From NCBI GenBank assembly GCA_037446155.1, contig JBBIJE010000007.1:1765-65764 (forward strand): a DNA stretch of 64,000 nucleotides, read 5' to 3'. A program made the position numbers and the translations under genes. Below are positions 2,503-24,819 of this stretch, piece after piece (the first letter of the stretch is position 1; each line of letters starts with the position of its first letter). The notes under the pieces are model-generated. The model had not been told where the DNA came from. It did not search any database and worked only from the letters and a program-made list of their open reading frames with translations. This stretch comes from Myxococcales bacterium (GTDB lineage Bacteria; Desulfobacterota; Binatia; UTPRO1; JBBIJE01).

Positions 2503-2517
2503 TGGTTCCTCACCTCC

Positions 2518-3822: not shown

Positions 3823-4055
3823 GACGCCTCGAGGCTTTCCACCCGTGCAAGCACCCGCTGCAGGCGCTCTCTCACCTCGGCCCGCCCGCGCTCCGCACTC
3901 CTCAATCTCCCCTCGAGCTCTTTGATTTCACGCTGCTTTTCCTCGAGGGATCGCAGAAGCTTGTCGCGCTCGGTTTGCACCCGCTCGAAACGCTGAATGA
4001 TCTTGCGTAGTCGAGCCTCCAAGAGCCTGAAGTTATCCAACTCCACGCCGTACAA
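3807..4055 (-). CDS. Small coiled-coil protein, ZapB-like
   Basis: 82 aa, entirely heptad/charged (LEEKQREIKELEGRLRSAERGRAEVRERLQRV). It overlaps the zapA start by 16 nt. ZapB-like coiled-coil proteins commonly precede zapA. Confidence 0.4.
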   Translation of the reverse strand: MYGVELDNFRLLEARLRKIIQRFERVQTERDKLLRSLEEKQREIKELEGRLRSAERGRAEVRERLQRVLARVESLEASWGSA

Positions 4056-4162
4056 GCCTCGAGGGGATTCTAGTTAGTGTGCGCTCGGTCTGTCAAGTCT
4101 CGATCGCCGCCCCGACACCAGCGGCGCCCGCCAGGGGTCGCAACCATCCCCTGGGGGCAGCT

Positions 4163-5302
4163 TCACCTTGTACCGGATTCGGCAAAAAGCGCCTCCGCAA
4201 ATGCCAATGGATCGAAGGGTTTTAGGTCCTCGACCGCTTCGCCCAAACCGACGTATCTTACCGGGATTCCCAACTCCTCTTTGACCGCCAAAACCATCCC
4301 GCCCTTGGCCGTACCATCGAGCTTGGTCACGACAACGCCGGTTACCGAAACGGCCGCAAGGAACTCCCTTGCCTGAGCCAAAGAATTCTGGCCGTTAGTC
4401 GCGTCGAGCACGAGCAACACTTCGTGAGGTGCGCCCTCCACCTCTCGCCCCGCAATGCGCGCGATCTTGCGAAGCTCCTCCATGAGGTTTTTCTTCGTGT
4501 GCAAGCGCCCCGCCGTGTCGACCAAGACCACGTCGACGTCCCGAGCCTTGGCTGCCCGCAACCCGTCGACAACGGCGGCGCCCGGATCGCCTCCAGGTTG
4601 CAACTTGACGAGATGGGTCCCGACTCGCTTCGCCCACACCCCAAGCTGTTCGGCTGCGGCCGCCCTGAACGTGTCGGCTCCGACCAGCAAGACCTTTTTC
4701 CCCTCGCTCACGTGGCGCGCAGCCAATTTCCCAACCGTCGTGGTCTTGCCGGCACCGTTTACGCCCACAACCAAGATCACCCAAGGTTTGAAGCGCGGCT
4801 CCGAAGTCGGCCCGTCAGAGAGCAGCCGCGAGATCTCCGTCACCAGCGCCGCACGCAGCTCCCCAGCACTAGATGTTCCTAAACCCTTAGCAAAGGCCAC
4901 AAGCCTCGAGGCCACCTTGACGCCGACATCAGCCGCAAGCAGCACCTCCTCCAACCGCTCGCAAGCGCTTTCGTCGCCCCCCCTTATGCTCGAAGCCCAG
5001 CCCAGGAAAGCACGTAGACCGCTGCGTGTTTTTGCCAGCCCTTCGTAAACGGTCGTGGCCCTCGCAGCCAACCTCGGGGGCGCGCCGACCGACTGCACCG
5101 CACCGCGCCGGCGCCTCGCGCCCCAATACGCAAGGACCGCAAGCAAAACGGCGAGAAACAAGGAAGCGGCGACCACCCAAAACTCGCCGACTCCCGCGGC
5201 CGCGCCGAACATGTCTTGGCTCAACTGGAACATCGCTACTAGATCTGCATATAAGGGATCCTGGGGCCGAAAATCCAGCCTCTTTCTCAAGCCTCGCCCC
5301 AA
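4163..5302 (-). CDS. ftsY: Signal recognition particle receptor FtsY
   Basis: SRP54-type GTPase motifs (GVNGAGKTTTVGKLA; DTAGR; TKLDGTAKGG). An N-terminal hydrophobic helix suggests a membrane-anchored form. Confidence 0.9.
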   Translation of the reverse strand: MGRGLRKRLDFRPQDPLYADLVAMFQLSQDMFGAAAGVGEFWVVAASLFLAVLLAVLAYWGARRRRGAVQSVGAPPRLAARATTVYEGLAKTRSGLRAFLGWASSIRGGDESACERLEEVLLAADVGVKVASRLVAFAKGLGTSSAGELRAALVTEISRLLSDGPTSEPRFKPWVILVVGVNGAGKTTTVGKLAARHVSEGKKVLLVGADTFRAAAAEQLGVWAKRVGTHLVKLQPGGDPGAAVVDGLRAAKARDVDVVLVDTAGRLHTKKNLMEELRKIARIAGREVEGAPHEVLLVLDATNGQNSLAQAREFLAAVSVTGVVVTKLDGTAKGGMVLAVKEELGIPVRYVGLGEAVEDLKPFDPLAFAEALFAESGTR

Positions 5303-5495
5303 GCACCCCGACGCTTCCGCCTAGAAGGCGACCGATCTGAAAGTAGGCTTCGCTCGTGAACATGCAAGGGATACCACCAGCCCGGGGGCTGGCCACCTGG
5401 GCCCCAAAAGATACGGCGCCGATCTCCAGCCTTCCGAGGAAAGGAAGACTCGCTTGCGGCCCCCGCCGGCTCCGAGGCCAAAGGGCCTTGTGGCG

Positions 5496-8400: not shown

Positions 8401-9197
8401 AGCGAATTGATCTGCCGCTCAACCTCCCGCAGGATGTCCTCCACGCGAACCAGATTGTCACGGGTCCGCTCCATTTTCCGCTCCGCCACCACGCGTCGGC
8501 TTCGGTAAAGCGTCACGCCGGCGGCCTCCTCTATCAATATCCGGATTTCTTCCGGCTTCGCGCTGAGTAGCTGCTCCACCCTGCCCTGTTCGATGATGGC
8601 ATAAGCCTTGGCCCCGACTCCGGTTCCCAAGAAGAGCTCGGTAATGTCGCGCAACCTGCATGGGATATCGTTTACCAAGTATTCTGATTCACCAGATCGA
8701 AAATAACGCCGCGTCACCATGATTTCGGTGAGGCCGGGCCGCACCGCGGGCGAGCCACCGTCCCGCCTCACGATAAGGGGATCCCGGGGGAGTGAATCGC
8801 ATTCGAAGAGAACCGAGACCTGAGCCATGCCGAGCGGTCCTTGGTTTTCGTTACCGCAGAAAACCACATCGTCCATGCTCTCGCCGCGCAGCCGCTTTAC
8901 ACTTTGTTCGCCCAGCGTCCAACGAATCGCATCCACTATGTTGGATTTACCGCATCCATTGGGGCCCACGATGGCGGTAATGCCAGGGGGCAGGGATATG
9001 ACTGTCCTTTCCCGGAAGGACTTGAAACCGAGCAGTTCGATTCGCTTGAGGCGCAAGCCCGCGCCGGAGAGGAGCGCCGCGGTAGGCTCCTGCTCCGGCT
9101 CGTTCTCCTCAAGAACCCCGGCCGCCGAAGCCCCGCCCTCGCAGGCCGGGTCTGGCACACGCGCGATCTGATTAGACGATGCCGAATTGGGCGGCAT
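5496..9197 (-). CDS. smc: Chromosome segregation protein SMC
   Basis: 1233 aa. N-terminal Walker A (LKRIELLGFKSF...GPNGCGKSN), very long coiled-coil arms with a hinge, and C-terminal signature/Walker B (LSGGEKALTAVSLIFALF...ILDEVDAPLD). The first ~45 residues of the ORF may be an upstream extension. Confidence 0.9.
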   Translation of the reverse strand: MPPNSASSNQIARVPDPACEGGASAAGVLEENEPEQEPTAALLSGAGLRLKRIELLGFKSFRERTVISLPPGITAIVGPNGCGKSNIVDAIRWTLGEQSVKRLRGESMDDVVFCGNENQGPLGMAQVSVLFECDSLPRDPLIVRRDGGSPAVRPGLTEIMVTRRYFRSGESEYLVNDIPCRLRDITELFLGTGVGAKAYAIIEQGRVEQLLSAKPEEIRILIEEAAGVTLYRSRRVVAERKMERTRDNLVRVEDILREVERQINSLKRQTRKAERYRQCKLELEQLDLWLAQLERGRWRNKLWCIEVEGFAAAQALRGAEEKMTGLDQRMRDLGAELETRDTLAKEREAEAIRAQGAIARCEQERDFLRARIAAEESELARARVELEAIRGKLSEIDSEVATTRDGIDRGGSSKKEAAAELERWERSLAATCAELERLESALEAAKTATFECLAAETAARNACETAASREAAEEKERNKLNELVRQAEAEHAAAAQDSREAADTLRLMREKVEKLEGAKRQAALALERAEQERSAWLAVVEEQEAALLKARSRLESLRGLCENLEGYGEGVRRLLKRAEAQGCALLAESLEVRESLERPVAAVLGERLQYLIVEGHAEALHLLRQVQSEPGGRAAFIPRLPRFKRVAEVPSGAQRLSDLVAARASAQPVVEYLLGDVLLVSDVETALAMWRRNGGTWTFVTPAGEVVDAGGVVSGGSEERAEQRLLSQRRVVRELEQEVERAERALGEGRVRAAHLDRVVEDARQALVGIGAEVDEVALSAVRAEKDVELAGARLRSAAERLEGLELERSELEEQRLWSQEERSRAELELAEARARREQAEVALESLLSRVQALRNAREETARKLTEGKISLVKAEERLVALESRLADLLDALEDNRARHRETERRIARAEEELEEERRRLERLAGELEKMGEVHRAAVEAAHRASCEAQGTRQLLEAVRNERDSLERELRQTRQRLADIEVERTKARLGIEHLEQTIRERYGSEIPDGDFAAEGVDEEATRARVRELRESLAAMGEVGTAALEELKELEERRGFLAGQKKDLEKSLEDLQRTVVRLNRTCRERFRETFEKVKVSFESVFPRLFPGGRATLKLTDGDKPLESGVEVSVQPPGKRLGSLDLLSGGEKALTAVSLIFALFLINPSPFCILDEVDAPLDDANIGRFNALIKETSERSQFVLITHNKRTMEVADTLYGITMEEPGISKVVSVKLPAP

Positions 9198-9288
9198 GAC
9201 CCCTCACCTCCCCTCCCCCCAACAAGCTCGCCGCATCGAGCGACGGCATGATTTCACGCTCGTCCGTCGCTGTCAAGCGATCTACCCG

Positions 9289-9906
9289 CTAGGGTAGAAG
9301 CTCCGCGTTCCAGTAGGAAACATCCACGCTGTCGATAAACGGCAGCCACTCCCGGTACCGCCTGAGGCTGAAGCCATCGACGTTGAACGGCGTCCAGCGC
9401 GGCCGGCTCGGGCGCCTAAGCAACTTCATCCCCGCCTCTTCCGGCGTCCTGCCCCCCTTTCGCCGGTTGCACTTCAAACAGGAACAGACAACATTTTCCC
9501 AGACCGCCATTCCTCCCCGCGAGCGCGGGATGACGTGATCTAGGTTGAGCTCGCTTCTCGGGAACTGCTTACCGCAGTACTGGCAAGTGTTGCGGTCACG
9601 AGCGTAGATGTTGTGCCGGCTAAAGCGGACATGGCGCTTGGGCACGCGGTCGTAAGCTATGAGGAGAATCACTCGGGGAACCCTTATCGCTCGGCTCACC
9701 AACCCGATCCGATCGTGATTGACACTCACGGCCAACTCTGCCCAGCTATCGAAATCGAAGGTCCGGTACTGCTCATCTACGGCCTCGGCGATCCCCTGGT
9801 ACAGGAGGGAGAAAGCACGCCGCACGGAGGTCACATGAACCGGCAAATAAGAGCGGTTAAGAACCAGCACCTTGGAGTTGAGCACGCCTACGCTTGCGCC
9901 ACTCAT
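9289..9906 (-). CDS. HNH endonuclease family protein
   Basis: 205 aa with CQYCG...LDHVIPRSRGG...CSCLKCNRRKG. This is an HNH nuclease Zn-finger/His-Asn-His core. Confidence 0.7.
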   Translation of the reverse strand: MSGASVGVLNSKVLVLNRSYLPVHVTSVRRAFSLLYQGIAEAVDEQYRTFDFDSWAELAVSVNHDRIGLVSRAIRVPRVILLIAYDRVPKRHVRFSRHNIYARDRNTCQYCGKQFPRSELNLDHVIPRSRGGMAVWENVVCSCLKCNRRKGGRTPEEAGMKLLRRPSRPRWTPFNVDGFSLRRYREWLPFIDSVDVSYWNAELLP

Positions 9907-9971
9907 CGTTACCTCGCGACGGTACCCACCTTGGCGTTACAAGTCAAGATTCTACAGGAGCCAGCACGCGC

Positions 9972-10000
9972 TTGCAGGGAGAGGCGCGCGAACCTATACT
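9972..10000 (+). promoter_or_regulatory. Candidate sigma70-type promoter for the radical SAM gene
   Basis: TTGCAG (9972-9977), exact 17-nt spacer, TATACT (9995-10000). This AT-rich hexamer is unusual in the GC-rich surroundings and sits about 55 nt upstream of the 10054 ORF start. Confidence 0.3.
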
Positions 10001-10053
10001 AGCGTGGTACTCCGGCCCACCCAGCACTGGGCCGGGAACACTCGGGGCGAGAG

Positions 10054-12663
10054 TTGAGCGAGACTTTGCGGCGACAATACGAGCGGTTTCTGCCGCTCGT
10101 CGAGAAGCCAGCCCGCTACCTCGGTACCGAGCACGGGGCCATTTACAAGGATCCCAGGGCCGTTTCGGTGCATCTTGCACTCGCCTTCCCAGACGTCTAC
10201 GAGATAGGGCAATCCCATCTGGGATTGCAGATTCTCTATCAGGTTCTGAACCGCGACCGGCGCTTTTACGCCGAACGGGTCTTCGCGCCTTGGCCTGACA
10301 TGGAGCGCCAACTTCGCGCCCGCTCCTTACCGCTAGTCTCCCTGGAAACCGCCACCCCCTTGCGCGACTTTCACATAGTCGGGTTCAGTCTCCAATACGA
10401 GCTCACCTACACCAACATCCTGGCCATGCTCGATCTCGGCGGCATCCCCATCTACAGTTTCGAGCGCACGGCCTCCCAGCCGCTCGTCATCGCCGGAGGA
10501 CCGTGCGCGTTCAATCCGGAGCCACTGGCTCCATTCCTCGATGCCGTGTTGGTGGGCGACGGCGAAGAGGGGGCGGTCGAGATCTGCGAAGCCTACCTCG
10601 CCTGGGACGGTCGCGACCGCTACGCGCTGCTCGAGTCGCTTCGCAGGATCGCGGGGGTGTATGTGCCGCTTCTTTGCCCTGCCGAACCCGCGGGAAGGCT
10701 CGGGTTTGTGTGCGCTCCCCCACGCGGCACCCACGCAGGAACGGTTCGCAAACGCGTCCTGAGCGATCTGGGAAAAGCACCGCCTGTGGCGGCGCAGATC
10801 GTCCCCTTGGTCAGGACCGTGCACAATCGCGCTAACGTGGAGGTCATGCGCGGGTGCGTAAAAGGATGCCGGTTCTGTCAAGCAGGCTATATTTACCGGC
10901 CGTTGCGGGAGCGCAGCCCTTCGTCCGTCATTGGCCGGGCGAGCGAGCTCTTGGGCAACACGGGCCACGACGAGGTGTCGCTGCTCAGCCTGAGCACCGG
11001 CGACTACAGTTGTCTGGAGGGCGTGCTCGAGGCGCTTCTCGCCCGCATTGCCGACCGCGGGGTGGCGGCTTCGCTCCCTTCGACGCGGGTGGACGCCCTG
11101 CGCCCCGATTTGGTGCGTCAGCTCGCGGCGGTGCGCAACACCGGCGTGACGCTCGCTCCGGAAGCGGGGACCGAGCGATTGAGGCGGGTTATCCAGAAGG
11201 AATATACAGAGGAACAATTGCTGGACGCCGCCGCGCGGCTTTTCGCGCATGGCTGGCGGCGACTCAAGCTCTACTTCATGATCGGGCTGCCGACCGAAAC
11301 GGACGAAGACCTCGAGGGAATCGCCAAACTGTGCGCGAGAGTGAAGACCGTCGCCGGCCGCAGAGCGAACGTTACTGCCAGCGTATCGACCTTCGTGCCC
11401 AAACCGCACACACCTTTCCAGTGGATGGAGCAGATCGGCCTGGAGGAAACCAGGCGGCGCCAGCACTACCTAGCCAAGCGGCTTGCCAGGCTCGGGATCC
11501 GATTCAGGTGGCACGATCCTCGCCAGTCTCACCTAGAGGGGATTCTAGCGCGCGGCGATAGGTCTCTAGCACCCGTCATCGAGGGAGCGTATCGCCTCGG
11601 GTGCCGCTTCGATGCATGGACCGACCAACTCAGGCTCGATCTATGGCGCGAGGCGCTTTCCCTTTGCGATGTCGGCCCAGATCGCTTTCTCGGGGCGCGC
11701 TGGACCGAGGATCCTCTGCCCTGGGACCACATAGAAGCCGGGGTCTCGAAGGGATTCCTCTTGCGGGAGTTGGAAGCTGCCCTAGGCGAGATGAGAACGC
11801 CGGACTGTGCCGTAGAGCGATGCAGCCACTGCGGCGTTTGCGACTTCGTAACCATTCGCAACGTCGTGTATGCCCCAAAGGCTGCCAAAGGGACCGAGCG
11901 CCGCTGGGAGCCGCCGCTCGAGAAACCAAAGCCCGGACGGCTTACGGGAGCGACCTCGAAGAAGCCCGTACAGAGAATCAGGCTCGCCCATTTGAAGGTC
12001 GGTTGGGCGCGTTTTCTGGGCAATTTAGATCTCGTGGCGACGATCCTCCAGGCGCTTAGACGGGCGGAGCTTCCGCTTGCGCTGTCCGCCGGCCACCGCC
12101 CCGCACCCTTGCTAAGCCCAGGACCCGCCCTCGCCTTGGGGGTCGAGAGCCTGGGAGAGTTTTTGGATCTTTGGTTTTATAGGCCCCTTCCCCCAACCGA
12201 GGCAGCTCGGCGGCTCAATCGCGAGCTTCCCGAAGAGCTACGCGTGGTGGAAGCGCTCGACGTGCCGCTTTCTTCGCCGAGCATAGAGTCGCAAGTGGAG
12301 GCCTTCGTTTACGAGGTGGACACGGCGGACCTTTGCGCGACGGGAGTCGCCGAAGAGAAGCTTTTAGAGCTCGTAGAGGCGTTTCGCCAGGCCGACACTT
12401 GGCCGGTTCTAAAAACTACAAAGGGGAAGACCCAAACGATCGATGCCAAGGAGTCTTGCGAGCTGCGCTGGCCCGAGGGGGAGAGGAAGTTGATCGCGCA
12501 GCTCGGGCTGGCGGGCGCAAAAGGAGCGCGCCTGCTTCCTCTGCTCGCGAGCGTGCTCAGGCTAAGCCCTGCCGAACTCGCCTTCCTGCGCGTCACCAAG
12601 ATCGAAACTCTGCTTTCGCCGGCCATGCCTTCTCTTCCACGTGGTGCCGCGGCACGTAGTTGA
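10054..12663 (+). CDS. Radical SAM protein (TIGR03960 family, B12-binding-like N-terminus) fused to a TIGR03936/DUF2344 domain
   Basis: 869 aa. Radical SAM CxxxCxxC (GCVKGCRFCQAGY) in the N-terminal ~620 aa; the C-terminal ~250 aa is DUF2344-like. These two families are normally adjacent genes or fused, and are frequently next to rng, as here. Confidence 0.75.
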   Translation: MSETLRRQYERFLPLVEKPARYLGTEHGAIYKDPRAVSVHLALAFPDVYEIGQSHLGLQILYQVLNRDRRFYAERVFAPWPDMERQLRARSLPLVSLETATPLRDFHIVGFSLQYELTYTNILAMLDLGGIPIYSFERTASQPLVIAGGPCAFNPEPLAPFLDAVLVGDGEEGAVEICEAYLAWDGRDRYALLESLRRIAGVYVPLLCPAEPAGRLGFVCAPPRGTHAGTVRKRVLSDLGKAPPVAAQIVPLVRTVHNRANVEVMRGCVKGCRFCQAGYIYRPLRERSPSSVIGRASELLGNTGHDEVSLLSLSTGDYSCLEGVLEALLARIADRGVAASLPSTRVDALRPDLVRQLAAVRNTGVTLAPEAGTERLRRVIQKEYTEEQLLDAAARLFAHGWRRLKLYFMIGLPTETDEDLEGIAKLCARVKTVAGRRANVTASVSTFVPKPHTPFQWMEQIGLEETRRRQHYLAKRLARLGIRFRWHDPRQSHLEGILARGDRSLAPVIEGAYRLGCRFDAWTDQLRLDLWREALSLCDVGPDRFLGARWTEDPLPWDHIEAGVSKGFLLRELEAALGEMRTPDCAVERCSHCGVCDFVTIRNVVYAPKAAKGTERRWEPPLEKPKPGRLTGATSKKPVQRIRLAHLKVGWARFLGNLDLVATILQALRRAELPLALSAGHRPAPLLSPGPALALGVESLGEFLDLWFYRPLPPTEAARRLNRELPEELRVVEALDVPLSSPSIESQVEAFVYEVDTADLCATGVAEEKLLELVEAFRQADTWPVLKTTKGKTQTIDAKESCELRWPEGERKLIAQLGLAGAKGARLLPLLASVLRLSPAELAFLRVTKIETLLSPAMPSLPRGAAARS

Positions 12664-15085: not shown

Positions 15086-16267
15086 TTGCGGGGAGAGGCA
15101 AAGAGCATGGCTGAAGCGCCGGTCGTTCTCGTTCACGGGATCACGGGAGCGAACATGCTGCAAACCTACGACGATTCCTTCGATACGGTTTGGAGCGGGA
15201 CGCAAAAGATATTCGAGTCGATATGGGATCTCGAGCTCGATCCAACGGGTGCTGTGGATAGAGATCCGCGAGACCTGATCGTGCCCGGGCGCATCGAGTG
15301 GCTCGCGTACGCGGAGCTGTTGAGCCGCTTGCGCAAAGACTTTCAGGCTCCCATTTACATTTTTCGTTACGACTGGCGGCGCGACAACGCGGCCTCGGCC
15401 CTGAGATTCGGCGAGTTTCTCGACACCGTCCGCTTGAAGACCGGCGCGGATAATGTCCGCATAGTCACCCACAGCATGGGGGCGCTCGTGCTAGGCGCGC
15501 TCCTCAAACGGCGCGAAGACATGATCCCCCGGGTCGGGCGATGTGTCATGGCCGCCCCACCCTTTCTCGGTGCGGCCGAAGCCGTTCGGGCGCTCATAGT
15601 CGGTCAAAGCGGAATCCTTCCCATCAATTCTAGCGACGCATTCAGGAAGATAGCCCGTTCCTTCCCTAGCGTCTACCAACTCGTGCCCTGCTACCCAGGG
15701 GCGTTCCTCCACCACCTCGAAGGATACCGCGACAGCGACGTTTGGGATCTCGGATATTGGCAGCGGCGGGTCAAGTTCGGCACCCGAGATCGTACTCATT
15801 ACCAGAAACGTCAGGAGATCATGCAACGCCATTTGACGCGAGCTGGCGAATTCCACCGCAGCGAGATCGTCGACTTCGACACCCTTGCCGCTGAAACTCG
15901 GGCAAGATTCATGGTGCTCTATGGAACCGGCGAGAAGACTCTCGAGAAAATCACCGTGCTTCCGAGCAATACTGCCGGTGATATCGCCAATTTCTTCAAA
16001 TTCGACGATCCGGGAAACTTCGGCGACGGCGATGGGACCGTGCCGCTCGCAAGCGCCAAGCGTTTTCGTCGGCTCTTTTCTCACGAGATCAAGCTCGCCA
16101 ATCAGCGCAAGTGGTGGAACCCGTTTTCGTGGGAGGACTCGCTCAAGATCGGTCTCGCCGGGTTCCATGGCGGCTTTCTCGCCCTCGACAAGGTGCAGAG
16201 CGTAGTGGTGGCCTTCCTCAAGGGGCAGCGGCCGAAGCCATCCTGGAGCGATCCCATACGCGAGTAG
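15086..16267 (+). CDS. Alpha/beta-hydrolase, LCAT/PGAP1-like lipase/esterase family
   Basis: 393 aa. [10 protein letters not shown] and nucleophile elbow VTHSMGALV (GxSxG-type). Confidence 0.55.
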
Positions 16268-16281
16268 AAAGGAGGCAAAGC

Positions 16282-17193
16282 GTGCACAGAAGCTCACCGC
16301 CGATAAGGGTGGGATGGATAGGGACCGGCGTCATGGGAGAACCGATGTGCGCGCATCTGCTGGCTGCGGATTATCCGGTCACCGTCTTCAATCGCACCCG
16401 CAGCCGCGCCGAAGAGCTTCTCCGCCGGGGCGCTGCATGGGCAGGCAGTCCTGCCGAGGTGGCCGCCGCCTCGGATGTAACTTTCACCATGGTAGGCACC
16501 CCTGCAGACGTCCGCGAAGTCATCCTGGGATCCGCGGGTGTCCTAAGCCAGGCGAAGCGCGGATCGCTTGTCGTGGACATGACCACGAGCGAACCCTCCT
16601 TGGCCAAGGAGATACATCGGGCGGCACGGGCCATCGAGGTCGGAGCCGTCGACGCCCCGGTTTCGGGAGGAGACATAGGCGCCCGCGACGCTAGCCTATC
16701 GATCATGGTGGGCGCCGAGGAGCAGGATTTCGCACGAGTCGAGCCCCTGCTGCGACTCTTGGGGCGGACGGTAGTGAGACAGGGTGGCCCGGGGGCCGGC
16801 CAGCACGCCAAGGTCGCCAACCAAATCTTGGTCGCCTCCAACATCGTAGGAGCCTGCGAGGCGTTGCTTTACGGGTATCGAGCAGGCCTCGATCTCAGCA
16901 CGCTGCTTATGTCGGTGAGCCAGGGAGCTGCCGGCTCCTGGTCCCTATCCAATTACGGCCCGCGCATTCTGGCCGGCGACCTGCGGCCCGGCTTCGCGGT
17001 AAGGCATTTCTTGAAAGACCTCGGAATCGCGCTGACCGAGGCCAAACGCATGTCGCTCGCACTGCCCGGCTTGGCTTTGGCTGAGCAGCTCTACCTAGCC
17101 CTCCAGGCACAACGTGGCTCCGAGTTGGGGATCCAGGGACTGGTTTTGGCTCTCGCGCGTGCCTGCGACATCGACTGGCCCCCAGACACTTAG
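16282..17193 (+). CDS. NAD(P)-dependent 3-hydroxyacid dehydrogenase (3-hydroxyisobutyrate dehydrogenase / 2-hydroxy-3-oxopropionate reductase family)
   Basis: Rossmann motif [13 protein letters not shown], and the catalytic region of the HIBADH family. Start placed at the GTG at 16282, preceded by AGGAGG; the track ORF 16111.. carries an in-frame upstream extension overlapping the previous gene. Confidence 0.8.
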
Positions 17194-17386
17194 GAGCATC
17201 GGCTCACCGACCCGCCCCGCACCCTCTTGGCCTCCCGAGCTTCCTCTTTTTCTCAACGGCCCCTCGCTGCCCCCCCTTGCAATCCGACCCGCCCCAAGCC
17301 ACCCTGAGCGGGTAGCCGCTTCCAGCGTGGGGCCTGCGTAGGAGCCGTCCGAATGGCACGACCGGCGAGGAAGGGAGGGTTCAGCC

Positions 17387-20300
17387 ATGGTCTTTGGGCC
17401 TGTGGTACTTTTTGCGCTTTTTGCCACCGCCGCGATGCCGTCTGGTGCCGCGGCATCGGTTTGCGACGGCGCGCCCGCCTGCGTACCGGGCGGGGGGAGC
17501 ACGAGGACCGACTGCCTCGTCGAATGGCAAGTATTGCCTACACCGCCGCCTTCGAATGGCTTTCCCTCGGCCAGGATCGACTGCGTGGACGGGACCTCTT
17601 GCGACGGTGACGGGAGCGCCAACGGCGAGTGTTTGGTGTCGATAAATATCTGCATCAACAACGTCGATTCACGCTTGCCTGATTGCAACGCGGCCACGCT
17701 CGGCTTGCCGAAACTGGAGATCGCCTCGGTACAGTTGGCTAAACCACTGAAGGTGAAGCGCGACGGCTTCGACGCCGCCAACAAAGCGGCAATCATAGAA
17801 GCGCTTCGCAGCCTCAATGTACCCGTTACGGCGCGCGAGCTCGGGCTCTTGAGCTCGGGCGGCGGGAGTGCCGAGCAGGCCTGCACCGGCACGCCCCTGC
17901 GCTTTCGGGTTCCCTTGACGATACACCGGGGCGCGGTGACCAAGAGCCGAAAGACCATCAAGATTTTAGCCACTACCCCCCCGCCAGCGGGCGGCACCAA
18001 AGGCATCTTCGACCGGGACCGTCTCAAAATAAGTTGTCTTCCCAACCCGGCACCCCCATCGGTCGCCACCCCCCAACCGACCGGGATCGGCCCGAGTATC
18101 GTAAGCAACGCTACCGATCATCCCGTTCAAATCGAGGGGAGCGCGCTAGCGTCGGGGACGAGGCTCGTTTTGCAAAACCAACAGGGGAAGGAGTTGATGT
18201 GGCTCCCCACGGTCCACATCTCCGATTCTCTTTTGGCTGCGCTGGTCCCAGAGGGCTTTCCGGTTGCGGGAACGACGGCGCGACCGGAAGTGGAGGAGCT
18301 TCGAGCGGTGCTTGTTCACCCCTATCTGGCCGGTGTCGCGCCCGTCGTGCCGAACCGATTCACGGCGGTCGACGACCTGAATTTTACCAACCCCAACTCC
18401 GCAGCTCTCTCCCCCGACCAGAGCAAACTTTACATAACGAGCCCGCAAACGGACGAAGTTTGGGTGTACGACACCGCCGCCAACGCTTTCATCGACCAGG
18501 ACCCGCAGGAGCGGGGAGTTCAAGGGATACCGGTCGGCGACAACCCCTTTCACGTCGAGACTCTGAACCTCGGTGGCGGCAGCGGGTTGATTTGGGTGGT
18601 GAACCGGTTCTCGGATTTCCTCTCTCTGATCGACCCGGTGACCGACCGGGTGGTCGCCAGCGTCCCGGTTCTGAAAATGGCCCAGGAGGTGGAATTCGAC
18701 AACTCCGGGACGCGAGCGTTCGTGACCAACCAAAACCGCAACCTCGTCCAGGTCTTCGACATCTCCGGAAATCCCGAGGCACCGGTAGAGATCACCCGTG
18801 TCGAGGTCGGCATGAGCCCGCGAGGGATGGCGATAAATTCATCCGACACCAAGCTCTACGTCACAAACATCCAGACTGCCGACGTTAGCGTAATCGACGT
18901 GGACGAACAGAGCCCGACCGTCTACACCCTGCGCTCTACTCCAACGGGAATATCCATCCAGCCACGAGCCGGCGACGACATCGTAGGAGGCTTCGCGGAT
19001 GGCTGGGAGGCGTACATCATCGGAGGGCGAGCTCCGAGGGGGGTCGCTTACAGCCGCGCGCTCGACCACGTGTTCGTGAGCAGTGTGGGGCCGAACATCG
19101 GTCCCCGTCCGGGCGTGACCCCCGGTAGCATCAACGGCACGATCATGCACCCCGTGATCACCGTAATCGATGCGAGCACCGACGCGATAGTTCGCCATAT
19201 AGCCATCGAAGGGACCGATCCCGAGCAGATCGCCATCGATGACGACGCGCGACTACTCTACGTTGCCTGCCAAGGCTCGGGGCAGATAAGCGTCCTCGAC
19301 CTGAACCTCGCCACCGGCTCCGCCGCGCAAGCGAACGCTGCGGAGGTGGCGGTAATAGAACTCCCTCTCGCGCCGGGCAGCCCGACGCTGAGCCCACCGA
19401 TTTCCGTGACAGGGGATTACGGAGAGCGGCGCTGCGGTGGTGGCACGAACAATCGCCTACCCTGCCAGCAGGCCGCCGACTGCCCCGGAAGCCCGCTCGG
19501 CGAGCTGGCCTGCCGGCAAAACAATCCGGTCGGGCTGCACAACGGGCCGCGCGGAATAGCCATCGCCCAAGGCGGAAACCCGCTCTACGCCGTAAATCAG
19601 TTCACGCTGAGCGTAACCGAGATCGATACTAGCCTAGCGCCCAGTTTTGCAACCTCTGTGCCGGTCGTGTTCGGCGAGGGCGGCTTTGTCGAAAGGCTCA
19701 GACGGCTGGGACAGATTGATTTCTTTACCGATTTGCGGAACTCCAACGTGAGCTGCGCTACCTGTCATATCGACGACGGCCAGGATGGCCTCATTCATGA
19801 AGCCGATGTCGTCGGGCCGCGCTTGAGACGTGTCCTTTCGGTGCGAAATACCCGCGACATACCGCCGCTTCTACAGGATCAGCTCGTCCCCGATCTCAGG
19901 GCTTTCGTCGATCTCGTGGTACACCTGGAGCGGGACGTACCGGATGCGCAGGTGTGCCTGCCATGTACCAACTTGGGTTGCCTGTTCGACGGCTGCTTTC
20001 TCACGAGCGACCCGGACATGGAAGCCAACAAGGCGTACGTCGAGGACGTGGCGTTTTTCCCCAACCCGAACCTCAACCCTGACGGAAGTCTCTCGACCAG
20101 CGTTCCCTTGCCCGACGGAGGCACGGGCAACGCCGTATCGGGGGCCACCATCTTCGACACGCTAAACTGCGCGAATTGCCATCCCGGGCCTCTCTACACC
20201 ATCGACCAATTCCAGCCGACCGTCGTGAACTTCAGCGACCTCGTGCGAGGCGTCCGCATGCGGGGCGTGGGCACGCCCATCCACCAGTCGCTTCGCGACA

Positions 20301-20875
20301 TGTGCCAAGACGACACGCGCCCGGTCCCGAAACAGGGGGCGTTTTGCGTGGGAGGAGCCAACGCGGGGCTGCCTTGTACCGAGACGAGTGCGTGCCCCGG
20401 TGGAAGCTGCGAGGGAACGTGCGTGGGCGGGACGAACAACGGGCTGCCCTGTTTGACAGATGCCGATTGCCCGGGCGGGCCGCCGAGCAATCCCGCCAGA
20501 TGCGGCCACGAGGGATTCGGGGTGCCCACGCTACGCGGCATCTGGGACTCCTTTCCCTTGCTGCTTAGCGGCTCCGCTGGCCTCGGCATCTCTCCGGGCG
20601 CCGAGCCAGCGGTAACCTGCACCCGAGGGTCCCGAGCCGGCCTGCCCTGTTCGGACGACTCCGATTGTCCCGGTGGGGAGTGCCTTTGCAGCGACCTCGC
20701 TAATCCCGCCAACCCCTCAGGCGTGGCAGTCCCCGAGCGACACCAGGTCATGACGGAGCGCAACGCACTTCGCTCGGTGCTTACGGCGAACAATCCCGTC
20801 GGCGCCCACGGCAACACGGCTGGCCTGACCGCCGAGGAGCTCAACGACCTCATGGCGTTTATTCTGTCGCTCTAA
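17387..20875 (+). CDS. Large secreted multidomain protein: Cys-rich N-terminal region + YVTN-type beta-propeller repeats + di-haem cytochrome c peroxidase/MauG-like domain interrupted by four Cys-rich repeats
   Basis: 1162 aa. Signal peptide MVFGPVVLFALFATAAMPSGAAAS. Repeated LYVTN/VYD propeller blades (LYITSPQTDEVWVYD, AFVTNQNRNLVQVFD, LYVTNIQTADVSVID, LLYVACQGSGQISVLD, LYAVNQFTLSVTEID). Two CxxCH haem sites (CATCH, CANCH) plus GVPTLRGIWDS and a C-terminal LTAEELNDLMAFILSL typical of CCP/MauG. Four copies of C-x-G-G-x-N-x-G-L-P-C-x4-D-C-P-G-G-x(n)-C. Confidence 0.7.
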   Translation: MVFGPVVLFALFATAAMPSGAAASVCDGAPACVPGGGSTRTDCLVEWQVLPTPPPSNGFPSARIDCVDGTSCDGDGSANGECLVSINICINNVDSRLPDCNAATLGLPKLEIASVQLAKPLKVKRDGFDAANKAAIIEALRSLNVPVTARELGLLSSGGGSAEQACTGTPLRFRVPLTIHRGAVTKSRKTIKILATTPPPAGGTKGIFDRDRLKISCLPNPAPPSVATPQPTGIGPSIVSNATDHPVQIEGSALASGTRLVLQNQQGKELMWLPTVHISDSLLAALVPEGFPVAGTTARPEVEELRAVLVHPYLAGVAPVVPNRFTAVDDLNFTNPNSAALSPDQSKLYITSPQTDEVWVYDTAANAFIDQDPQERGVQGIPVGDNPFHVETLNLGGGSGLIWVVNRFSDFLSLIDPVTDRVVASVPVLKMAQEVEFDNSGTRAFVTNQNRNLVQVFDISGNPEAPVEITRVEVGMSPRGMAINSSDTKLYVTNIQTADVSVIDVDEQSPTVYTLRSTPTGISIQPRAGDDIVGGFADGWEAYIIGGRAPRGVAYSRALDHVFVSSVGPNIGPRPGVTPGSINGTIMHPVITVIDASTDAIVRHIAIEGTDPEQIAIDDDARLLYVACQGSGQISVLDLNLATGSAAQANAAEVAVIELPLAPGSPTLSPPISVTGDYGERRCGGGTNNRLPCQQAADCPGSPLGELACRQNNPVGLHNGPRGIAIAQGGNPLYAVNQFTLSVTEIDTSLAPSFATSVPVVFGEGGFVERLRRLGQIDFFTDLRNSNVSCATCHIDDGQDGLIHEADVVGPRLRRVLSVRNTRDIPPLLQDQLVPDLRAFVDLVVHLERDVPDAQVCLPCTNLGCLFDGCFLTSDPDMEANKAYVEDVAFFPNPNLNPDGSLSTSVPLPDGGTGNAVSGATIFDTLNCANCHPGPLYTIDQFQPTVVNFSDLVRGVRMRGVGTPIHQSLRDMCQDDTRPVPKQGAFCVGGANAGLPCTETSACPGGSCEGTCVGGTNNGLPCLTDADCPGGPPSNPARCGHEGFGVPTLRGIWDSFPLLLSGSAGLGISPGAEPAVTCTRGSRAGLPCSDDSDCPGGECLCSDLANPANPSGVAVPERHQVMTERNALRSVLTANNPVGAHGNTAGLTAEELNDLMAFILSL

Positions 20876-21021
20876 GGTCGATTCGAGGGCGGAAAAGCCA
20901 ACGCCGGGAACGATGTCGCCGAGCTGGGCGGATCGGTTCGAGTTTGACTGAAGGCAACGCGCACTCTAATTCATGGGGACGAAGGCACGTGGTCTGCAAA
21001 CGAGGAGAAGCGGGGCTTACC

Positions 21022-21651
21022 ATGGGCGGGATTGTCCTCGCCGGCGGCCGCAGTAAGCGCATGGGATCGGCCAAGGAATGGCTCGACTTCGCCGGCGTTC
21101 CCATGTTACGGCGCGTCGTGGAGACCGTGGCTTCGCAGACCGCGCCGGTTGCGGTCGCAAGGAGCAAGGGCCAGGCGCTTCCACCCCTTCCCGCCGACAT
21201 CATCCTGACGGAGGATGAGGTGGACGACTGTGGGCCTCTCGGAGGGCTTGCGGCCGGGCTGGCGGCTCTAGAGGGTGCCGCCGATGCGGTTTTTCTTTGT
21301 TCCTGCGATGTACCGCTGCTTAAACCGGCCTTTATCCGCCTAGTGGCCCAGTCGCTCGGTGACTACGACATCGCCGTTCCGTGGGTCGCGGGACGGTACC
21401 ACCCTCTGGCTGCCGCCTACCGAGGCCGGTTGCTTCCGGTAGCGAGGAAACTCTTGGCGGCGGGCGAGCGCAGAATGCACTTCCTTTTCCCCGAAGCCCG
21501 CGTTAGGGTCTTGGAGCCCCCCCTCTTGCGCTCGGCCGACAGCGCTCTTTACTCGCTTCTGAACTGCAATACGAAAGAGGAATACCGGGAGCTTCTTCGG
21601 CTCTTCGACACCATCGGTGAAACGACACGAATCAGCGGCGAGGCGAGTTAG
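21022..21651 (+). CDS. mobA: Molybdenum cofactor guanylyltransferase MobA
   Basis: GIVLAGGRSKRMG motif and the LxxDxP region of MobA. The true start is likely the MGGIVLAGG methionine; the track ORF begins at 20944. Confidence 0.8.
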   Translation: MGGIVLAGGRSKRMGSAKEWLDFAGVPMLRRVVETVASQTAPVAVARSKGQALPPLPADIILTEDEVDDCGPLGGLAAGLAALEGAADAVFLCSCDVPLLKPAFIRLVAQSLGDYDIAVPWVAGRYHPLAAAYRGRLLPVARKLLAAGERRMHFLFPEARVRVLEPPLLRSADSALYSLLNCNTKEEYRELLRLFDTIGETTRISGEAS

Positions 21652-21673
21652 GTAACCAACGCAGCCGGCAGAC

Positions 21674-22660
21674 ATGACCAGATCCCTTTTCCGGCAAACG
21701 ATCCCCCGCCAGCATGGAGCATGGTCGATCCTGGCCGCCGCCGCGGCACTGGGAATGGTCGCGGGAGGCGGCTTGCGGGTACAGGGCGCGCTGTTCGCTG
21801 TGTGCGTCGTCCTGGGATTTTTCGCCCAGCACACCGGCGAGCTTTGGCTCAAGTTTTCAGGCTCAACGAACAGGCGAAGGGAGATCGGGTACCTTCTGCT
21901 GGCGTATGCCTTGACCTTTCTCCTCTGCGGCGCGATGTTGCTCTTCAAGTACGAGCTCTGGGGCCTATTACCCTTGGCTGGACTGGCATCTGGGCTGGTG
22001 GCCCTCTCCCTCACTCTATCCAAGGTCCGCAAGGCAAGAACCGTAGTCGGGGAGATCGTGAACGTCTTAGCTCTCACTCTGGTCCTTCCCGCCGCCGCCT
22101 ACTGTGCAGCCGGGAGCTACGTTTACCCTACTGTGGGCCTAACGCTCATGGCAGCGATTTTTTTCTGCGCAAGCATATTCCATGTCCGGTACTTGGTGCG
22201 TGGAGGCCGCCGCCAGGCCGGATCGGCTCCCGAGCGGTTGCGGGCCGCGACGCCCTCGCTCGCCTATCACGCTCTCGGCCTGGTCGCTGCCGGTGCGCTC
22301 GCCGCCTTCGGACTTCTCCCCATAGCAGCGCCACTCGCTCTTCTCCCGGTGACGCTCAAAGCTCTCCGGGCCGCAGCGATGCCGGCCCGCGGACCCACTC
22401 CGATCAGAACGATCGGGTATGTGGAACTCGCCCATACGATCGTCTTCGTCTTGCTGGCGGCGCTGTTGGCGGTACCGAGGTCTGGGAGGGGTTGCCATAC
22501 AATTGAGAATGAGTTTCAATTGCGCCTGTGCCGTTACTCTGCTCGAAGGCCGGCCCGCCCCGCCCCGCCGCCATCCCGCGCGGGATGGGTGGACCTTCAC
22601 CTCGACGCAACTTCGATTCTCTCGCCGCACTCTGTAGCCGCAGCGCCCGGGCAGCCCTAG
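21674..22660 (+). CDS. YwiC-like family polytopic membrane protein
   Basis: Starts with the family-typical PRQHGAWSILAAAAALG motif and has ~8 predicted TM helices. The last ~60 codons look non-membrane and low-complexity, and overlap the next gene in another frame, so the true stop/start here is uncertain. Confidence 0.5.
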   Translation: MTRSLFRQTIPRQHGAWSILAAAAALGMVAGGGLRVQGALFAVCVVLGFFAQHTGELWLKFSGSTNRRREIGYLLLAYALTFLLCGAMLLFKYELWGLLPLAGLASGLVALSLTLSKVRKARTVVGEIVNVLALTLVLPAAAYCAAGSYVYPTVGLTLMAAIFFCASIFHVRYLVRGGRRQAGSAPERLRAATPSLAYHALGLVAAGALAAFGLLPIAAPLALLPVTLKALRAAAMPARGPTPIRTIGYVELAHTIVFVLLAALLAVPRSGRGCHTIENEFQLRLCRYSARRPARPAPPPSRAGWVDLHLDATSILSPHSVAAAPGQP

Positions 22661-23379
22661 CTCTCGTGATCATTGGGTTCGACTGCGCTTTTGCTTACCG
22701 CCCCCTGGCGACCGAGGACGCAGGAGTCGCCGGTCGGCACAGGACCGAGGCGGAGGCAAGCTCGCAGTTCGTCGTCTGGCCTGACGGTACACGAGAGGGG
22801 CAGTTCTTGGCGGTGGGTATCGTAGGCTTGACGGAGCGGATCGAGGTCTCGCTCGAGCTACCCTATCTTTTGCACGATTCGCAGAGAGAAGGCGTGGCGA
22901 GTGGTCTAGGCGACCTCCAGATCGGGGGAAAGCTCTCGCTCGCCGGCGAGGTCCCCCCTTTTCCGGCTTTGGCCCTGCGCGGTACGGTAAAAACTGCCAC
23001 CGCAGACGCGGGCGATGGGCTTGGTTCTGGCGGCACGGACTACCAGCTCCTGGCGGTAGCGTCGAAACCCACAGGCCCCGTTTCCTGCCACGCGATGGGC
23101 GGTGTGACGCTTGTCGAGATCGAAGGTGGAAAAACCGAGCCGGCTATCCCGTACGGAGTGGCGGCAGACTGGCGAGTGCACGAGCGGCTTCACCTCGTGA
23201 CCGAGGTGGCCGGACACCGGCACCCAGACAAAGGGTTCGGCCAGGATCCGGCGCTCCTGTCGGTTGGAATGATCCTGCCCATGGGTTCGATGGTCTCCGT
23301 CGATGCGGCGGTTGGGACGGGCTTGACGAAGCACGCTCCGGACGTGGCTCTCGTCCTGGGCGCAACGATTTTCTTCTGA
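22528..23379 (+). CDS. Outer-membrane beta-barrel protein (MetA-pathway/transporter-like OMP family)
   Basis: Signal-peptide-like ARAALALVIIGFDCAFA, alternating amphipathic beta-strands, GLGDLQIGGK motif, C-terminal ...ALVLGATIFF (terminal Phe is an OMP signature). The start is probably downstream of 22528. Confidence 0.45.
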   Translation: MPLLCSKAGPPRPAAIPRGMGGPSPRRNFDSLAALCSRSARAALALVIIGFDCAFAYRPLATEDAGVAGRHRTEAEASSQFVVWPDGTREGQFLAVGIVGLTERIEVSLELPYLLHDSQREGVASGLGDLQIGGKLSLAGEVPPFPALALRGTVKTATADAGDGLGSGGTDYQLLAVASKPTGPVSCHAMGGVTLVEIEGGKTEPAIPYGVAADWRVHERLHLVTEVAGHRHPDKGFGQDPALLSVGMILPMGSMVSVDAAVGTGLTKHAPDVALVLGATIFF

Positions 23380-23601
23380 GGTCGAAGCGAAAAGAAGAGC
23401 GCAAAAGGCTTCCACCACCACCCGAGCCCCGCCCTTCCAATCCTCGGATGACTCGGATACAAGGTCTGCGTTTTCCGCTTCGGGCCGCCTGCTCCTCATC
23501 CCGAAGCTTCGCGGACTCTCCAGTGGGGCGGGCGGCGGATGGGAGGCGGCGGGGCTCGAGACCGGCGCGCCCCGGAATTCTAGGGAAGCATAGGATATTG
23601 G

Positions 23602-24819
23602 GTGAAGTACACTCGAAACGAATGCATGCTCCTTGCGCTTGCCGGCGTCGGCCATTTCAACACCCACCTGCTCGAGCTCATGTTTCCAACCGCCGCCATC
23701 GCCATCGCCGCCGATTCGGGAATGCCGCTGGCACACGTGACGGGACTCAGCTTCGCGGGCTACCTTCTCTTTGGGCTGGGAGCATTACCGGCGGGGATCA
23801 TCACCGACCACCTCGGATGCCGGCGCGTTTTGCTGGGCTCGATGGCTTTGGCTTCGCTTTTCGCGTTGGCAACCGGCGTGGCAGAGCCCGGCTGGCAGTT
23901 GGCGCTCACCCTCGCGGGAATGGGAGCCGCGCTTAGCGCCTATCACCCGGCCGGTACGAGCCTTCTCTCCCGAGGCATTCGCGCGCGAGGTAGGGCGCTC
24001 GGAATCAACGGCGTGTGCGGCAATCTCGGAGTGAGCGCCGCCCCGATCGTAACCGCGACGCTGCAGGCGAGCTGGCTCGGCTGGCGGGGAACATACTTGG
24101 CGGTGGGAGCAGTAAATCTCACCATCGTTCTTTTCTTTTCCCTTCTGAGGATCGAGGAACCCTTGACGCAAGGAAGTGGCTCGCCAGCGGAGGACCACGC
24201 TACCGACGGAAGCTCACCTTGGCATCTTTTCGTGTTTCTTTGCCTCGCCGCAACCCTAGCCGGCATCATCTACCGGGGCAATACCGTCATATTGCCCGCG
24301 TACTTCTCGGAACGCGTCACTCTCGTGAGCTACGGCGTGGCGACCTCTCTAGCGTACGTGGTCGGTGTCCCTGCCCAATACCTGGGCGGAGTGCTGGCTG
24401 ACCGCCACGAGCTTCGCTGGCTCTATTTTTCCGCGCACGCCTTGACGCTTCCCCTCTTGCTCCTCATGCCACTTCTCACCCAGGCTCCCCTCGTCGGGGT
24501 CGGAGCCGCCATCGTTCTCTTCAGCCTCGGCATGCAGCCGATCGAAAACAGCCTCTTCGCGAAACTCACACCGCCACGCTGGCGCGCGACCGGTTATGGG
24601 ACCAAGTTCGTGCTGACCTTCGGACTGGGGGCCACCGGGGTCGCGATCGTGGAGCGTGCGCAGGCTGAGGGAGATCTTTCGCTCGCGTTTCTATGGCTTG
24701 GCGGTATCGCCTTGGCTATGGTGTTAAGCGCAAGTTGCCTCTTGTTTTTTGGCCGAAGCCAGCTCTTCAATCGGGTCGCGCACCCTGCAGGCGAGCCGCC
24801 ACTGCACCGAGCCGACTAG
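23602..24819 (+). CDS. MFS transporter
   Basis: 405 aa, 12 predicted TM helices, MFS motif A-like GxLxDxxGCRRVLL between TM2 and TM3. Confidence 0.8.
   Translation: MKYTRNECMLLALAGVGHFNTHLLELMFPTAAIAIAADSGMPLAHVTGLSFAGYLLFGLGALPAGIITDHLGCRRVLLGSMALASLFALATGVAEPGWQLALTLAGMGAALSAYHPAGTSLLSRGIRARGRALGINGVCGNLGVSAAPIVTATLQASWLGWRGTYLAVGAVNLTIVLFFSLLRIEEPLTQGSGSPAEDHATDGSSPWHLFVFLCLAATLAGIIYRGNTVILPAYFSERVTLVSYGVATSLAYVVGVPAQYLGGVLADRHELRWLYFSAHALTLPLLLLMPLLTQAPLVGVGAAIVLFSLGMQPIENSLFAKLTPPRWRATGYGTKFVLTFGLGATGVAIVERAQAEGDLSLAFLWLGGIALAMVLSASCLLFFGRSQLFNRVAHPAGEPPLHRAD

Follow-up and report, generated by a model that had tools for sequence, protein, structure and literature searches.

To our knowledge, the only characterised protein that combines a beta-propeller with a di-haem domain is the beta-gamma part of the anammox hydrazine synthase (HZS). 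In the gamma subunit, haem gamma-I is His/OH- ligated and catalytic, and haem gamma-II is surface-exposed and bis-His ligated and acts as the entry haem (PMC12607021). Cys165 of HZS-gamma provides a third thioether and Asp168 is the proposed proton donor (PMC12758564, PMC12607021), while His144 is equivalent in position to the inter-haem Trp of the cytochrome c peroxidases (CCPs) and MauG (PMC12758564). Hagglund et al. (2025, Genome Biol Evol) reported more than 100 RefSeq matches, from several phyla, to a fused beta-gamma query; some of these homologues are annotated as CCPs, and the key HZS residues are not conserved in them (PMC12758564). Here we describe a protein of related plan encoded in a 64,000-nucleotide (nt) stretch of contig JBBIJE010000007.1, from an assembly labelled Myxococcales bacterium; this whole stretch is referred to below as the window. 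The gene at 17387..20875 had been predicted, from the letters alone, to encode a 1162-amino-acid (aa) secreted fusion of a YVTN propeller with a CCP/MauG-like di-haem domain. The present analysis bears out that architecture: the protein is one exported polypeptide in which a YVTN propeller is followed by a di-haem domain belonging to the CCP/MauG superfamily. The features on which this description rests, some of them found with hidden Markov models (HMMs), are as follows:

17373..17379, + strand: Shine-Dalgarno sequence GGGAGGG, 7 nt before the ATG, read from the sequence
17387..20875, + strand: whole gene, ATG start, TAA stop, 1162 codons plus TAA
17387..17455, + strand: Sec-type signal peptide, aa 1-23, read from the sequence; predicted cleavage AAA/SVC
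18377..19636, + strand: YVTN/lactonase-type beta-propeller, aa ~331-750, from HMM matches, with blades counted by eye
19637..20872, + strand: di-haem c domain of the CCP/MauG/HZS-gamma superfamily, aa ~751-1162
19754..19768, + strand: haem-binding motif 1, CATCH, aa 790-794, aligned to CASCH of 5c2v_C and CNSCH of 3o5c_A
20168..20182, + strand: haem-binding motif 2, CANCH, aa 928-932, aligned to the second motif of 5c2v_C and 3o5c_A

The two CxxCH motifs lie 138 residues apart and are invariant in 19 of the 19 family members in alignment A1, which is composed of the protein's own clade. All four motifs quoted in the original prediction (CATCH, CANCH, PTLRGIWDS at aa 1047-1055 and LNDLMAFILSL at aa 1152-1162) are present, and the two C-terminal ones are true superfamily signatures, aligning with PTLRDIY...LQDLVEYLKAL of HZS-gamma and PTLRNIE...MVAFLNSL of the Shewanella peroxidase BccP. 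Because the haem half, when scanned directly with Pfam and NCBIfam, gave only a generic, weak Cytochrom_C match and a sub-threshold CCP_MauG match, profile methods were needed; a single-sequence search against the PDB returned noise only (e.g., RNase T1 and protocadherin). The A1 profile matched just two PDB entries, HZS-gamma (5c2v_C, E 8.6e-4) and Shewanella BccP (E 0.004), and its match to 5c2v_C comprised three colinear stretches covering both haem motifs, the PTLR motif and the C-terminal helix. Aligned by hhalign to the haem domains of the PF03150-bearing fusions P0040-P0043, A1 gave 99.5% probability (E 4e-23) over 200 columns. A second profile, from 30 diverse sequences spanning three tiers of relatives (A3), matched HZS-gamma over its full length (E 7.9e-39), ahead of all CCPs (17 sequences, E 4e-24 to 1e-13) and of MauG (~1e-10). 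The AlphaFold model of the haem domain built from A3 had a predicted local distance difference test score (pLDDT) of 73 and a predicted template modelling score (pTM) of 0.76, with low confidence restricted to the inserts. In a Foldseek search with this model, 5c2v_C ranked first and the leading 49 matches all belonged to the CCP/MauG/HZS-gamma superfamily; the model made with the 19-sequence clade alignment (pLDDT 45) was left out of the fold search because it was unusable.

Sequence profiles and the modelled fold together identify the C-terminal domain as a divergent member of the CCP/MauG/HZS-gamma superfamily, with HZS-gamma as its nearest solved relative. The CCP/MauG identity first proposed thus holds at the level of the superfamily but not below it: the nearest solved relative is neither a CCP nor MauG, and the residues that are hallmarks of those enzymes (the inter-haem Trp, the PY(L/M)HDG segment, and a Met or Tyr axial ligand) were not found in the haem-domain alignments.

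The gene itself is intact, and its ribosome-binding site is strong. It is the longest open reading frame (ORF) at the locus, its frame is uninterrupted, and 193 nt separate it from the upstream gene; a promoter and terminator scan gave no signal above shuffles. Two close orthologues, P0046 (1167 aa) and L002 (a 1185-aa ORF on contig CAYZHO010000074), are colinear with the 1162-aa protein from end to end, and they retain the Cys of every module, out of 37 Cys overall, except Cys628, which is Ala in both. Their identity to it is 22-27% in the signal peptide, 52-55% in the Cys-rich N terminus, 39-45% in the middle module, 37-48% in the Ig-like module, 70-74% in the propeller and 76-78% in the haem domain, the best-conserved part. 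The identical 1162-aa sequence was obtained from NCBI (on a 194.5-kb contig) and from a second source, a Logan assembly. An ORF produced by a sequencing or assembly error that fused two genes, a possibility the original prediction had named, or a decaying pseudogene is therefore hardly credible. Nothing was found in its favour beyond the length and mosaic make-up of the protein, which had prompted the question: the continuous frame preceded by a Shine-Dalgarno sequence, the full-length colinear orthologues (66-81% identity) on other contigs, the Logan copy, the propeller-then-haem order kept across at least 65 clusters (see below) and the strong conservation of the catalytic domain all speak for one gene. 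The L002 contig (CAYZHO010000074.1) is itself palindromic, with the 1185-aa ORF and its neighbours present twice in mirrored order, at 877-4434 (-) and 7185-10742 (+); this is probably an assembly artefact or an inverted duplication.

The signal peptide that had been claimed can be read from the sequence. The N terminus, MVFGPVVLFALFATAAMPSGAAA followed by SVC, is hydrophobic with an AXA site, and this site is kept in both orthologues (ALA/GLC in P0046, ASA/GLC in L002). Attachment of c-type haem requires export. A lipoprotein N terminus was considered and rejected, as ASVC/AGLC is not a lipobox and the AXA site for signal peptidase I is conserved instead.

The propeller was detected directly, with TIGR02276 (E 5e-20, 71.1 bits against a cut-off of 27.85, in 3 stretches) and Pfam Lactonase PF10282 (E 2e-13, 50.7 bits against 21.7) both exceeding their curated cut-offs. 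Seven blade-like segments can be read by eye from the sequence of aa 331-750, where at least six LYVTN/VYD-type blades had been noted, and a 70-aa insertion (aa 645-715) separates blades 6 and 7. The propeller also gave weak, local matches to the NCBIfam NF052342 / NF052340 pair, scoring 39 bits with hydrazine_BC and 39.9 bits with hydrazine_beta. These matches, the standing of HZS-gamma as the closest solved structure and an architecture equal to that of the fused beta-gamma subunit (PMC12758564) raise the idea of a hydrazine synthase component, i.e., anammox-type N-N bond formation outside Brocadiia. The same scores argue against it, as the cut-offs are 1250 bits for hydrazine_BC and 560 for hydrazine_beta. 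Furthermore, neither an alpha-subunit homologue nor any other CxxCH-containing ORF occurs in the 64 kb, the residue at gamma-His144 is Gln, Cys165 and Asp168 are not in register, and the same negative conclusion was reached for other beta-gamma homologues (PMC12758564). Hydrazine synthesis, like an assembly artefact, is excluded for practical purposes.

The protein's own clade contains ~35 proteins in a large clustered database, all metagenomic and mostly fragments, with both CxxCH motifs present wherever the sequence covers them. The clade loci come from metagenome-assembled genomes labelled uncultured Myxococcales, Candidatus Binatia or Deltaproteobacteria; the uncultured Myxococcales loci show 78-81% best-segment identity to the haem domain, and L002 is 66% identical over the whole protein. 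When 1.84 billion cluster representatives were searched exhaustively with HMMER, 375 relatives were recovered at E <= 1e-3; these fall into the protein's own clade, a bridging sequence, P0048 (TIG + Big_5 + propeller + di-haem), a large ~750-aa tier (Ig-like + propeller + di-haem) and more canonical CCP-like sequences. Among the best 150 matches, a homologous propeller (phmmer E < 1e-3) lies N-terminal to the di-haem domain in 65 of the 92 representatives of at least 550 aa, which amounts to at least 65 distinct 50%-identity clusters; one PF03150-bearing fusion cluster alone has 80 member sequences. Because of these 65 clusters and the more than 100 RefSeq matches in PMC12758564, the propeller plus di-haem fusion is a known, recurrent, functionally uncharacterised kind of which this clade is a divergent variant, and the earlier remark that propeller-CCP fusions are uncommon has to be withdrawn.

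Several relatives depart from the common plan. P0084 (1216 aa) has an N-terminal HTTM (vitamin-K-carboxylase-like membrane) domain fused to the propeller plus di-haem core. Several members of the ~750-aa tier have one CxxCH only, and P0055 has CSTSGCH (CX4CH) at the second haem motif. P0018 (L001/L006, contig_9973, 2.6 Mb) was called as 603 aa, begins in mid-propeller and carries an aberrant Arg/Ser-rich tail past the C terminus; its irregular ends look like frameshift errors of a long-read assembly.

Comparison of the haem surroundings with those of the characterised relatives draws attention to four sites:

19874..19876, + strand: Gln830, occupying the site of the CCP/MauG inter-haem Trp and of HZS-gamma His144 (hhalign column and alignments)
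19928..19933, + strand: Glu848-Arg849 (HLER), invariant (A1 E99, R100), position inferred from alignments
19955..19996, + strand: clade-specific Cys cluster CLPCTNLGCLFDGC, aa 857-870, an insertion relative to the other tiers
20807..20809, + strand: His1141, the predicted distal ligand of haem 2, part of a near-invariant HG motif

By homology with HZS-gamma, the haem bound at CATCH 790 is predicted to be the catalytic haem, equivalent to HZS gamma-I and to the low-potential haem of CCP, and the haem at CANCH 928 is predicted to be the electron-entry haem. The inter-haem residue is Trp in CCP/MauG and in the Trp-containing fusions, His144 in HZS-gamma and Gln830 in the clade, where it is invariant (LLQDQ). 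The PY(L/M)HDG segment, which reads PYFHDG in BccP and TYFHDG in HZS-gamma and is kept by the Trp-containing fusions, is FPLLLSG in the clade. In the alignments, Glu848-Arg849 falls opposite the distal Glu in the KEM motif of CCP and opposite LDR in HZS-gamma, and the clade has Phe in place of the CCP distal Gln; the alignment of this loop is uncertain. The Cys cluster, which has the form CxxC-x8-C-x7-C in most clade members and CLPCTNLGCLFDGC in the 1162-aa protein, sits in the loop that bears Cys165 and Asp168 in HZS-gamma, with the register not conserved. The HG motif is at least 90% conserved among the 30 diverse family members and is common to all tiers and to HZS-gamma (MHGRTSHL), lying in the loop from which, in the superfamily, haem 2 receives its axial ligand. 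Because the motif is shared with HZS-gamma, whose gamma-II is bis-His, His1141 is the likely sixth ligand of haem 2; in the same loop its HG His stands where CCP has Met, and no Tyr aligns at the MauG Tyr294 position. Near haem 1, most clade members have a His four residues past the first CxxCH (CHIDDHQDGVFFEADV), whereas the 1162-aa protein and its two close orthologues have Gly at this site and a different His six residues on (CHIDDGQDGLIHEADV; aa 795-810, 19769-19816). The change looks compensatory and suggests a functionally required His near haem 1.

The explanation that best accounts for the protein as a whole, and one we hold to be reasonably probable, is a Sec-exported, disulfide-rich propeller-di-haem protein of ~120 kDa, predicted to be periplasmic or surface-located in a diderm bacterium, in which a two-haem relay delivers electrons to a small oxidant. 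Electrons from a soluble periplasmic donor would enter at the C-terminal haem (CANCH 928), bis-His ligated through His1141 in the manner of gamma-II, and would then pass to the N-terminal haem (CATCH 790). The distal pocket of haem 1 would be formed by Glu848-Arg849 and the clade-specific Cys-rich loop and covered by the propeller, and the small oxidant reduced there could be hydrogen peroxide or an N-oxide such as nitric oxide (NO) or hydroxylamine. The Cys-knot inserts and the N-terminal module (described below) would be disulfide-stabilised surface decorations rather than redox cofactors, and the protein would work alone, without an alpha-subunit-like or other conserved partner gene. We infer the haem roles, by homology with HZS-gamma, as well as the ligands and the substrate. 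Taken by itself, reductive small-molecule chemistry has somewhat less than an even chance; within it, peroxide as the oxidant is possible though doubtful, an N-oxide such as NO or hydroxylamine is improbable, and other oxidants are very unlikely. Oxidative chemistry of the MauG/BthA/RoxA kind is rather unlikely.

Four observations weigh against this explanation. PF03150 (CCP_MauG) gave only 13 bits on the haem half (E 0.15-0.17; cut-off 25.6), in a match limited to the surroundings of the first CxxCH; 13 of the 19 clade members likewise give sub-threshold matches only (best E 0.016), so that the HMM check proposed for this half fell short and the homology was recovered by profile-profile, family-profile and fold comparison only. 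The A3-based AlphaFold model contains no haems and is poor in the inserts, and the placement of the ligands and of the Cys cluster rests on loop alignment. The replacements of Trp/His by Gln, of PY(L/M)HDG by FPLLLSG and of the distal Gln by Phe affect key residues, and because of them the electron path and pocket chemistry may differ from those of every characterised relative. Finally, the genomic context is uninformative on function, the neighbours being housekeeping genes that are not conserved between loci.

A bona fide bacterial CCP, reducing H2O2 to water with electrons from a periplasmic cytochrome and using the propeller as a docking or scaffold domain, would account for the inclusion of BccP, NeCCP, PaCCP, MacA and YhjA among the profile and fold matches, for the invariant Glu848 aligned with the catalytic distal Glu of CCP and for the retention of the PTLRG and C-terminal helix motifs; some related fusions (P0042) are also annotated as cytochrome-c peroxidase. 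We nevertheless regard it as unlikely, since PF03150 stays under threshold, Gln replaces the electron-relaying inter-haem Trp, Phe aligns with the distal Gln, PYxHDG is gone and the ligand position has the HG His in place of Met.

Another reading is an oxidative enzyme of the MauG/MbnH/BthA type, in which H2O2 or O2 would generate a high-valent bis-Fe(IV)-type state that modifies a protein or peptide, possibly one bound by the protein's own propeller or N-terminal modules, or carries out a RoxA-like organic oxidation. Large fused substrate-binding modules (propeller and Ig domain) would suit a macromolecular substrate, and the bridging relative P0048 has a weak RoxA-like cytochrome c match. 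Gln830, however, replaces the Trp needed for charge-resonance stabilisation and hole hopping in MauG, no Tyr aligns with the MauG Tyr294 ligand, and no substrate gene such as mauA or mbnP adjoins the locus, which has no conserved neighbour at all; such an enzyme is quite unlikely.

The Cys cluster in the haem-1 loop allows a further reading, namely that the clade is a self-contained, alpha-less enzyme of HZS beta-gamma type with a new active site, in which Gln would take the place of the inter-haem Trp/His relay and the Cys loop would give haem 1 an axial ligand or an extra thioether. We give this little credence. If true, it would mean a chemistry new for the fold, such as NO or hydroxylamine turnover or the oxidation of sulfur compounds at a His/Cys haem, on the surface of aerobic bacteria of soils and sediments.

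The reductive two-haem relay remains the explanation we favour. The protein has two further sets of parts, one N-terminal to the propeller and one of loop inserts in the propeller and haem domain:

17456..18052, + strand: orphan N-terminal region, aa 24-222, a Cys-rich module plus a ~120-aa module
18077..18376, + strand: pre-propeller IPT/TIG-like (Ig-fold) module, aa ~231-330, GIGPSIVSNATDHPVQIEGSAL..., from alignment A4
19433..19513, + strand: Cys-knot insert 1, aa 683-709, CGGGTNNRLPCQQAADCPGSPLGELAC, within the blade-6/7 insertion
20345..20503, + strand: tandem Cys-knot inserts 2 and 3, aa 987-1039, 53 aa, two units of CxGGxNxGLPCxxxxxCPGG..C
20618..20689, + strand: Cys-knot insert 4, aa 1078-1101, a family loop enlarged by 15 residues between two family-conserved Cys

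The original prediction described a Cys-dense N-terminal ~70 aa. Eight Cys do fall within aa 26-100, but the N-terminal 330 aa hold more than this, namely an orphan module of ~200 aa and the IPT/TIG-like module. Within the ~120-aa part of the orphan region there is one Cys pair (166, 217), and all Cys of the region are conserved in the close orthologues in the alignment with P0046 and L002. Residues 24-222 have no Pfam or NCBIfam match, and the N-terminal 200 aa found zero homologues in a search of 5.8 billion proteins; apart from the 1162-aa protein, only its close orthologues P0046, L002 and L008 have the region, and the alignment to more distant clade members begins only at residue ~212-234. 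The pre-propeller module is conserved across the wider family (A4). Pfam TIG is matched by 6 of 20 homologous pre-propeller segments (best E 1.4e-4), the copy in the 1162-aa protein being unmatched, and the module can tentatively be called an IPT/TIG-like Ig domain.

The Cys-knot units differ in their distribution. At the site of insert 1 the other clade members have a different six-Cys loop; inserts 2 and 3 are missing from 17 of 18 aligned homologues in A1, P0001 having one unit there; and insert 4 recreates a CxGGxNxGLPC-type unit, at aa 1078-1099, in an enlarged family loop. All four are kept Cys for Cys in P0046 and L002, and the unit has no other occurrence within the window. No curated model recognises it. 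The TIGR04201 Myxococcales Cys-rich repeat scores 14.6 bits against a cut-off of 25; the likeness lies in a unit of ~22-25 residues, a C..(D)C.(G)G..C spacing and an occurrence in Myxococcota-like genomes, whereas TIGR04201 forms long tandem arrays and the units here are single loop insertions in an enzyme domain. Two unrelated proteins, P0036 (392 aa) and P0037 (447 aa), consist mostly of tandem CxGGxNxGxxCxxxxDCPxGxC copies, and P0037 also has an RHS-repeat-associated core. After the 4 haem Cys and Cys628 are subtracted, 32 Cys are left, an even number, and these conserved non-haem Cys are thus compatible with 16 disulfides in an oxidising compartment; the Cys-knot units are probably disulfide-stabilised surface mini-domains. 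An Fe-S or other metal cluster at the Cys motifs was also considered; export by the Sec route, the lack of a twin-arginine motif and the even number of conserved non-haem Cys make it unlikely.

Upstream of the gene lie genes for a radical SAM protein, RNase G, a methylpurine glycosylase, an LCAT-like hydrolase and a 3-hydroxyisobutyrate-dehydrogenase-like protein, and downstream those for a MobA-like transferase, a YwiC-like protein, a MetA-like outer-membrane protein, a major facilitator superfamily (MFS) transporter and IspG. Elsewhere the window codes for SMC, FtsY, RNase Y, Omp85/BamA-like, TamB, SecDF, RecJ and similar proteins, and the window is core chromosome of a diderm. As had been noted at the outset, the gene has no obvious partners: when the ten neighbours were compared by tblastn with eight homologous loci, together with an all-against-all ORF comparison, no conserved neighbour was found beside the homologues, save at the near-identical loci L004/L005 and for an 'FQVNSYT'-repeat protein at two Binatia loci. 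The window contains no second CxxCH-containing ORF and no alpha-subunit homologue. Because there is no other CxxCH ORF, the neighbours are not conserved and the GC content is uniform across the window, the gene appears to act alone.

The FQVNSYT-repeat protein, which is secreted, ~600 aa long and unmatched in Pfam, does not occur in the window; it adjoins the homologue at 4408-6186 (+) of L003 and 3-1829 (+) of L007, downstream of it at one of these loci and upstream at the other. Directly downstream of the 1162-aa gene, at 20944-24819 (+), the genes for the MobA-like nucleoside triphosphate (NTP) transferase, YwiC-like membrane protein, MetA-like outer-membrane channel and MFS transporter lie on one strand. 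The listed ORFs of the LCAT-like hydrolase (15086-16267, +) and the dehydrogenase-like protein (16111-17193, +) overlap by 157 nt; because the Pfam domain of the latter begins only at residue 66, its true start is probably near 16300.

Because the haem domain remains ~77% identical between orthologues despite the lost Trp/His144, the clade is, as judged from its conservation, under selection for some activity. Curated models overlook it, Pfam reporting Lactonase and a weak Cytochrom_C only. As a single gene it offers a tractable target for the role of the non-anammox beta-gamma-like enzymes and for a di-haem relay without an aromatic bridge, and small disulfide-knot units inserted in the surface loops of an enzyme are relevant to protein evolution and engineering. 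If the protein is an ordinary peroxidase, the value is confined to an improved annotation.

Among described systems, the fused beta-gamma form of HZS shares with the 1162-aa protein the order of a YVTN-type propeller, here of seven predicted blades, and then a di-haem domain, a late propeller insertion (the blade 6 region), a HG..(T/S)..L...DL..(Y/F)L..L C terminus and the lack of the CCP Trp. It differs in that the present locus has no alpha subunit gene, Gln at gamma-His144, Cys165/Asp168 out of register and NCBIfam equivalog scores far under threshold, the host is not an anammox bacterium, and the protein has ~330 extra N-terminal residues, a ~60-aa clade insertion after FPLLLSGSAG and Cys-rich loop insertions. 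The CCPs (BccP/CcpA 3o5c, NeCCP 1iqc, PaCCP 1eb7, MacA, YhjA) resemble the 1162-aa protein in carrying a similarly spaced pair of CxxCH motifs, a PTLR(N/G) motif and an amphipathic helix at the C terminus, and one of its acidic residues aligns with their distal Glu; unlike them, the 1162-aa protein has no inter-haem Trp and no Met ligand segment, its distal Gln is replaced, a propeller is fused to it and its Pfam match is sub-threshold. MauG, MbnH and BthA are set apart by the absence here of a Trp93 equivalent, a Tyr ligand and an adjoining substrate gene. The PF03150 fusions P0040-P0043 ('HZS beta-gamma homologues') have the same two-module core and C-terminal signature; at 610-690 aa they score with PF03150 and retain P(F/Y)HWDG (with the Trp) and PY(L/M)HDG, whereas the 1162-aa protein is 1.7 times longer and its clade has LLQDQ and FPLLLSG and goes undetected by PF03150. 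On these alignments, the clade is distinguished by the change of Trp to Gln, the loss of PY(L/M)HDG and the Cys cluster in the haem-1 distal loop, and the protein's own sub-lineage additionally by the four conserved Cys-knot loop inserts.

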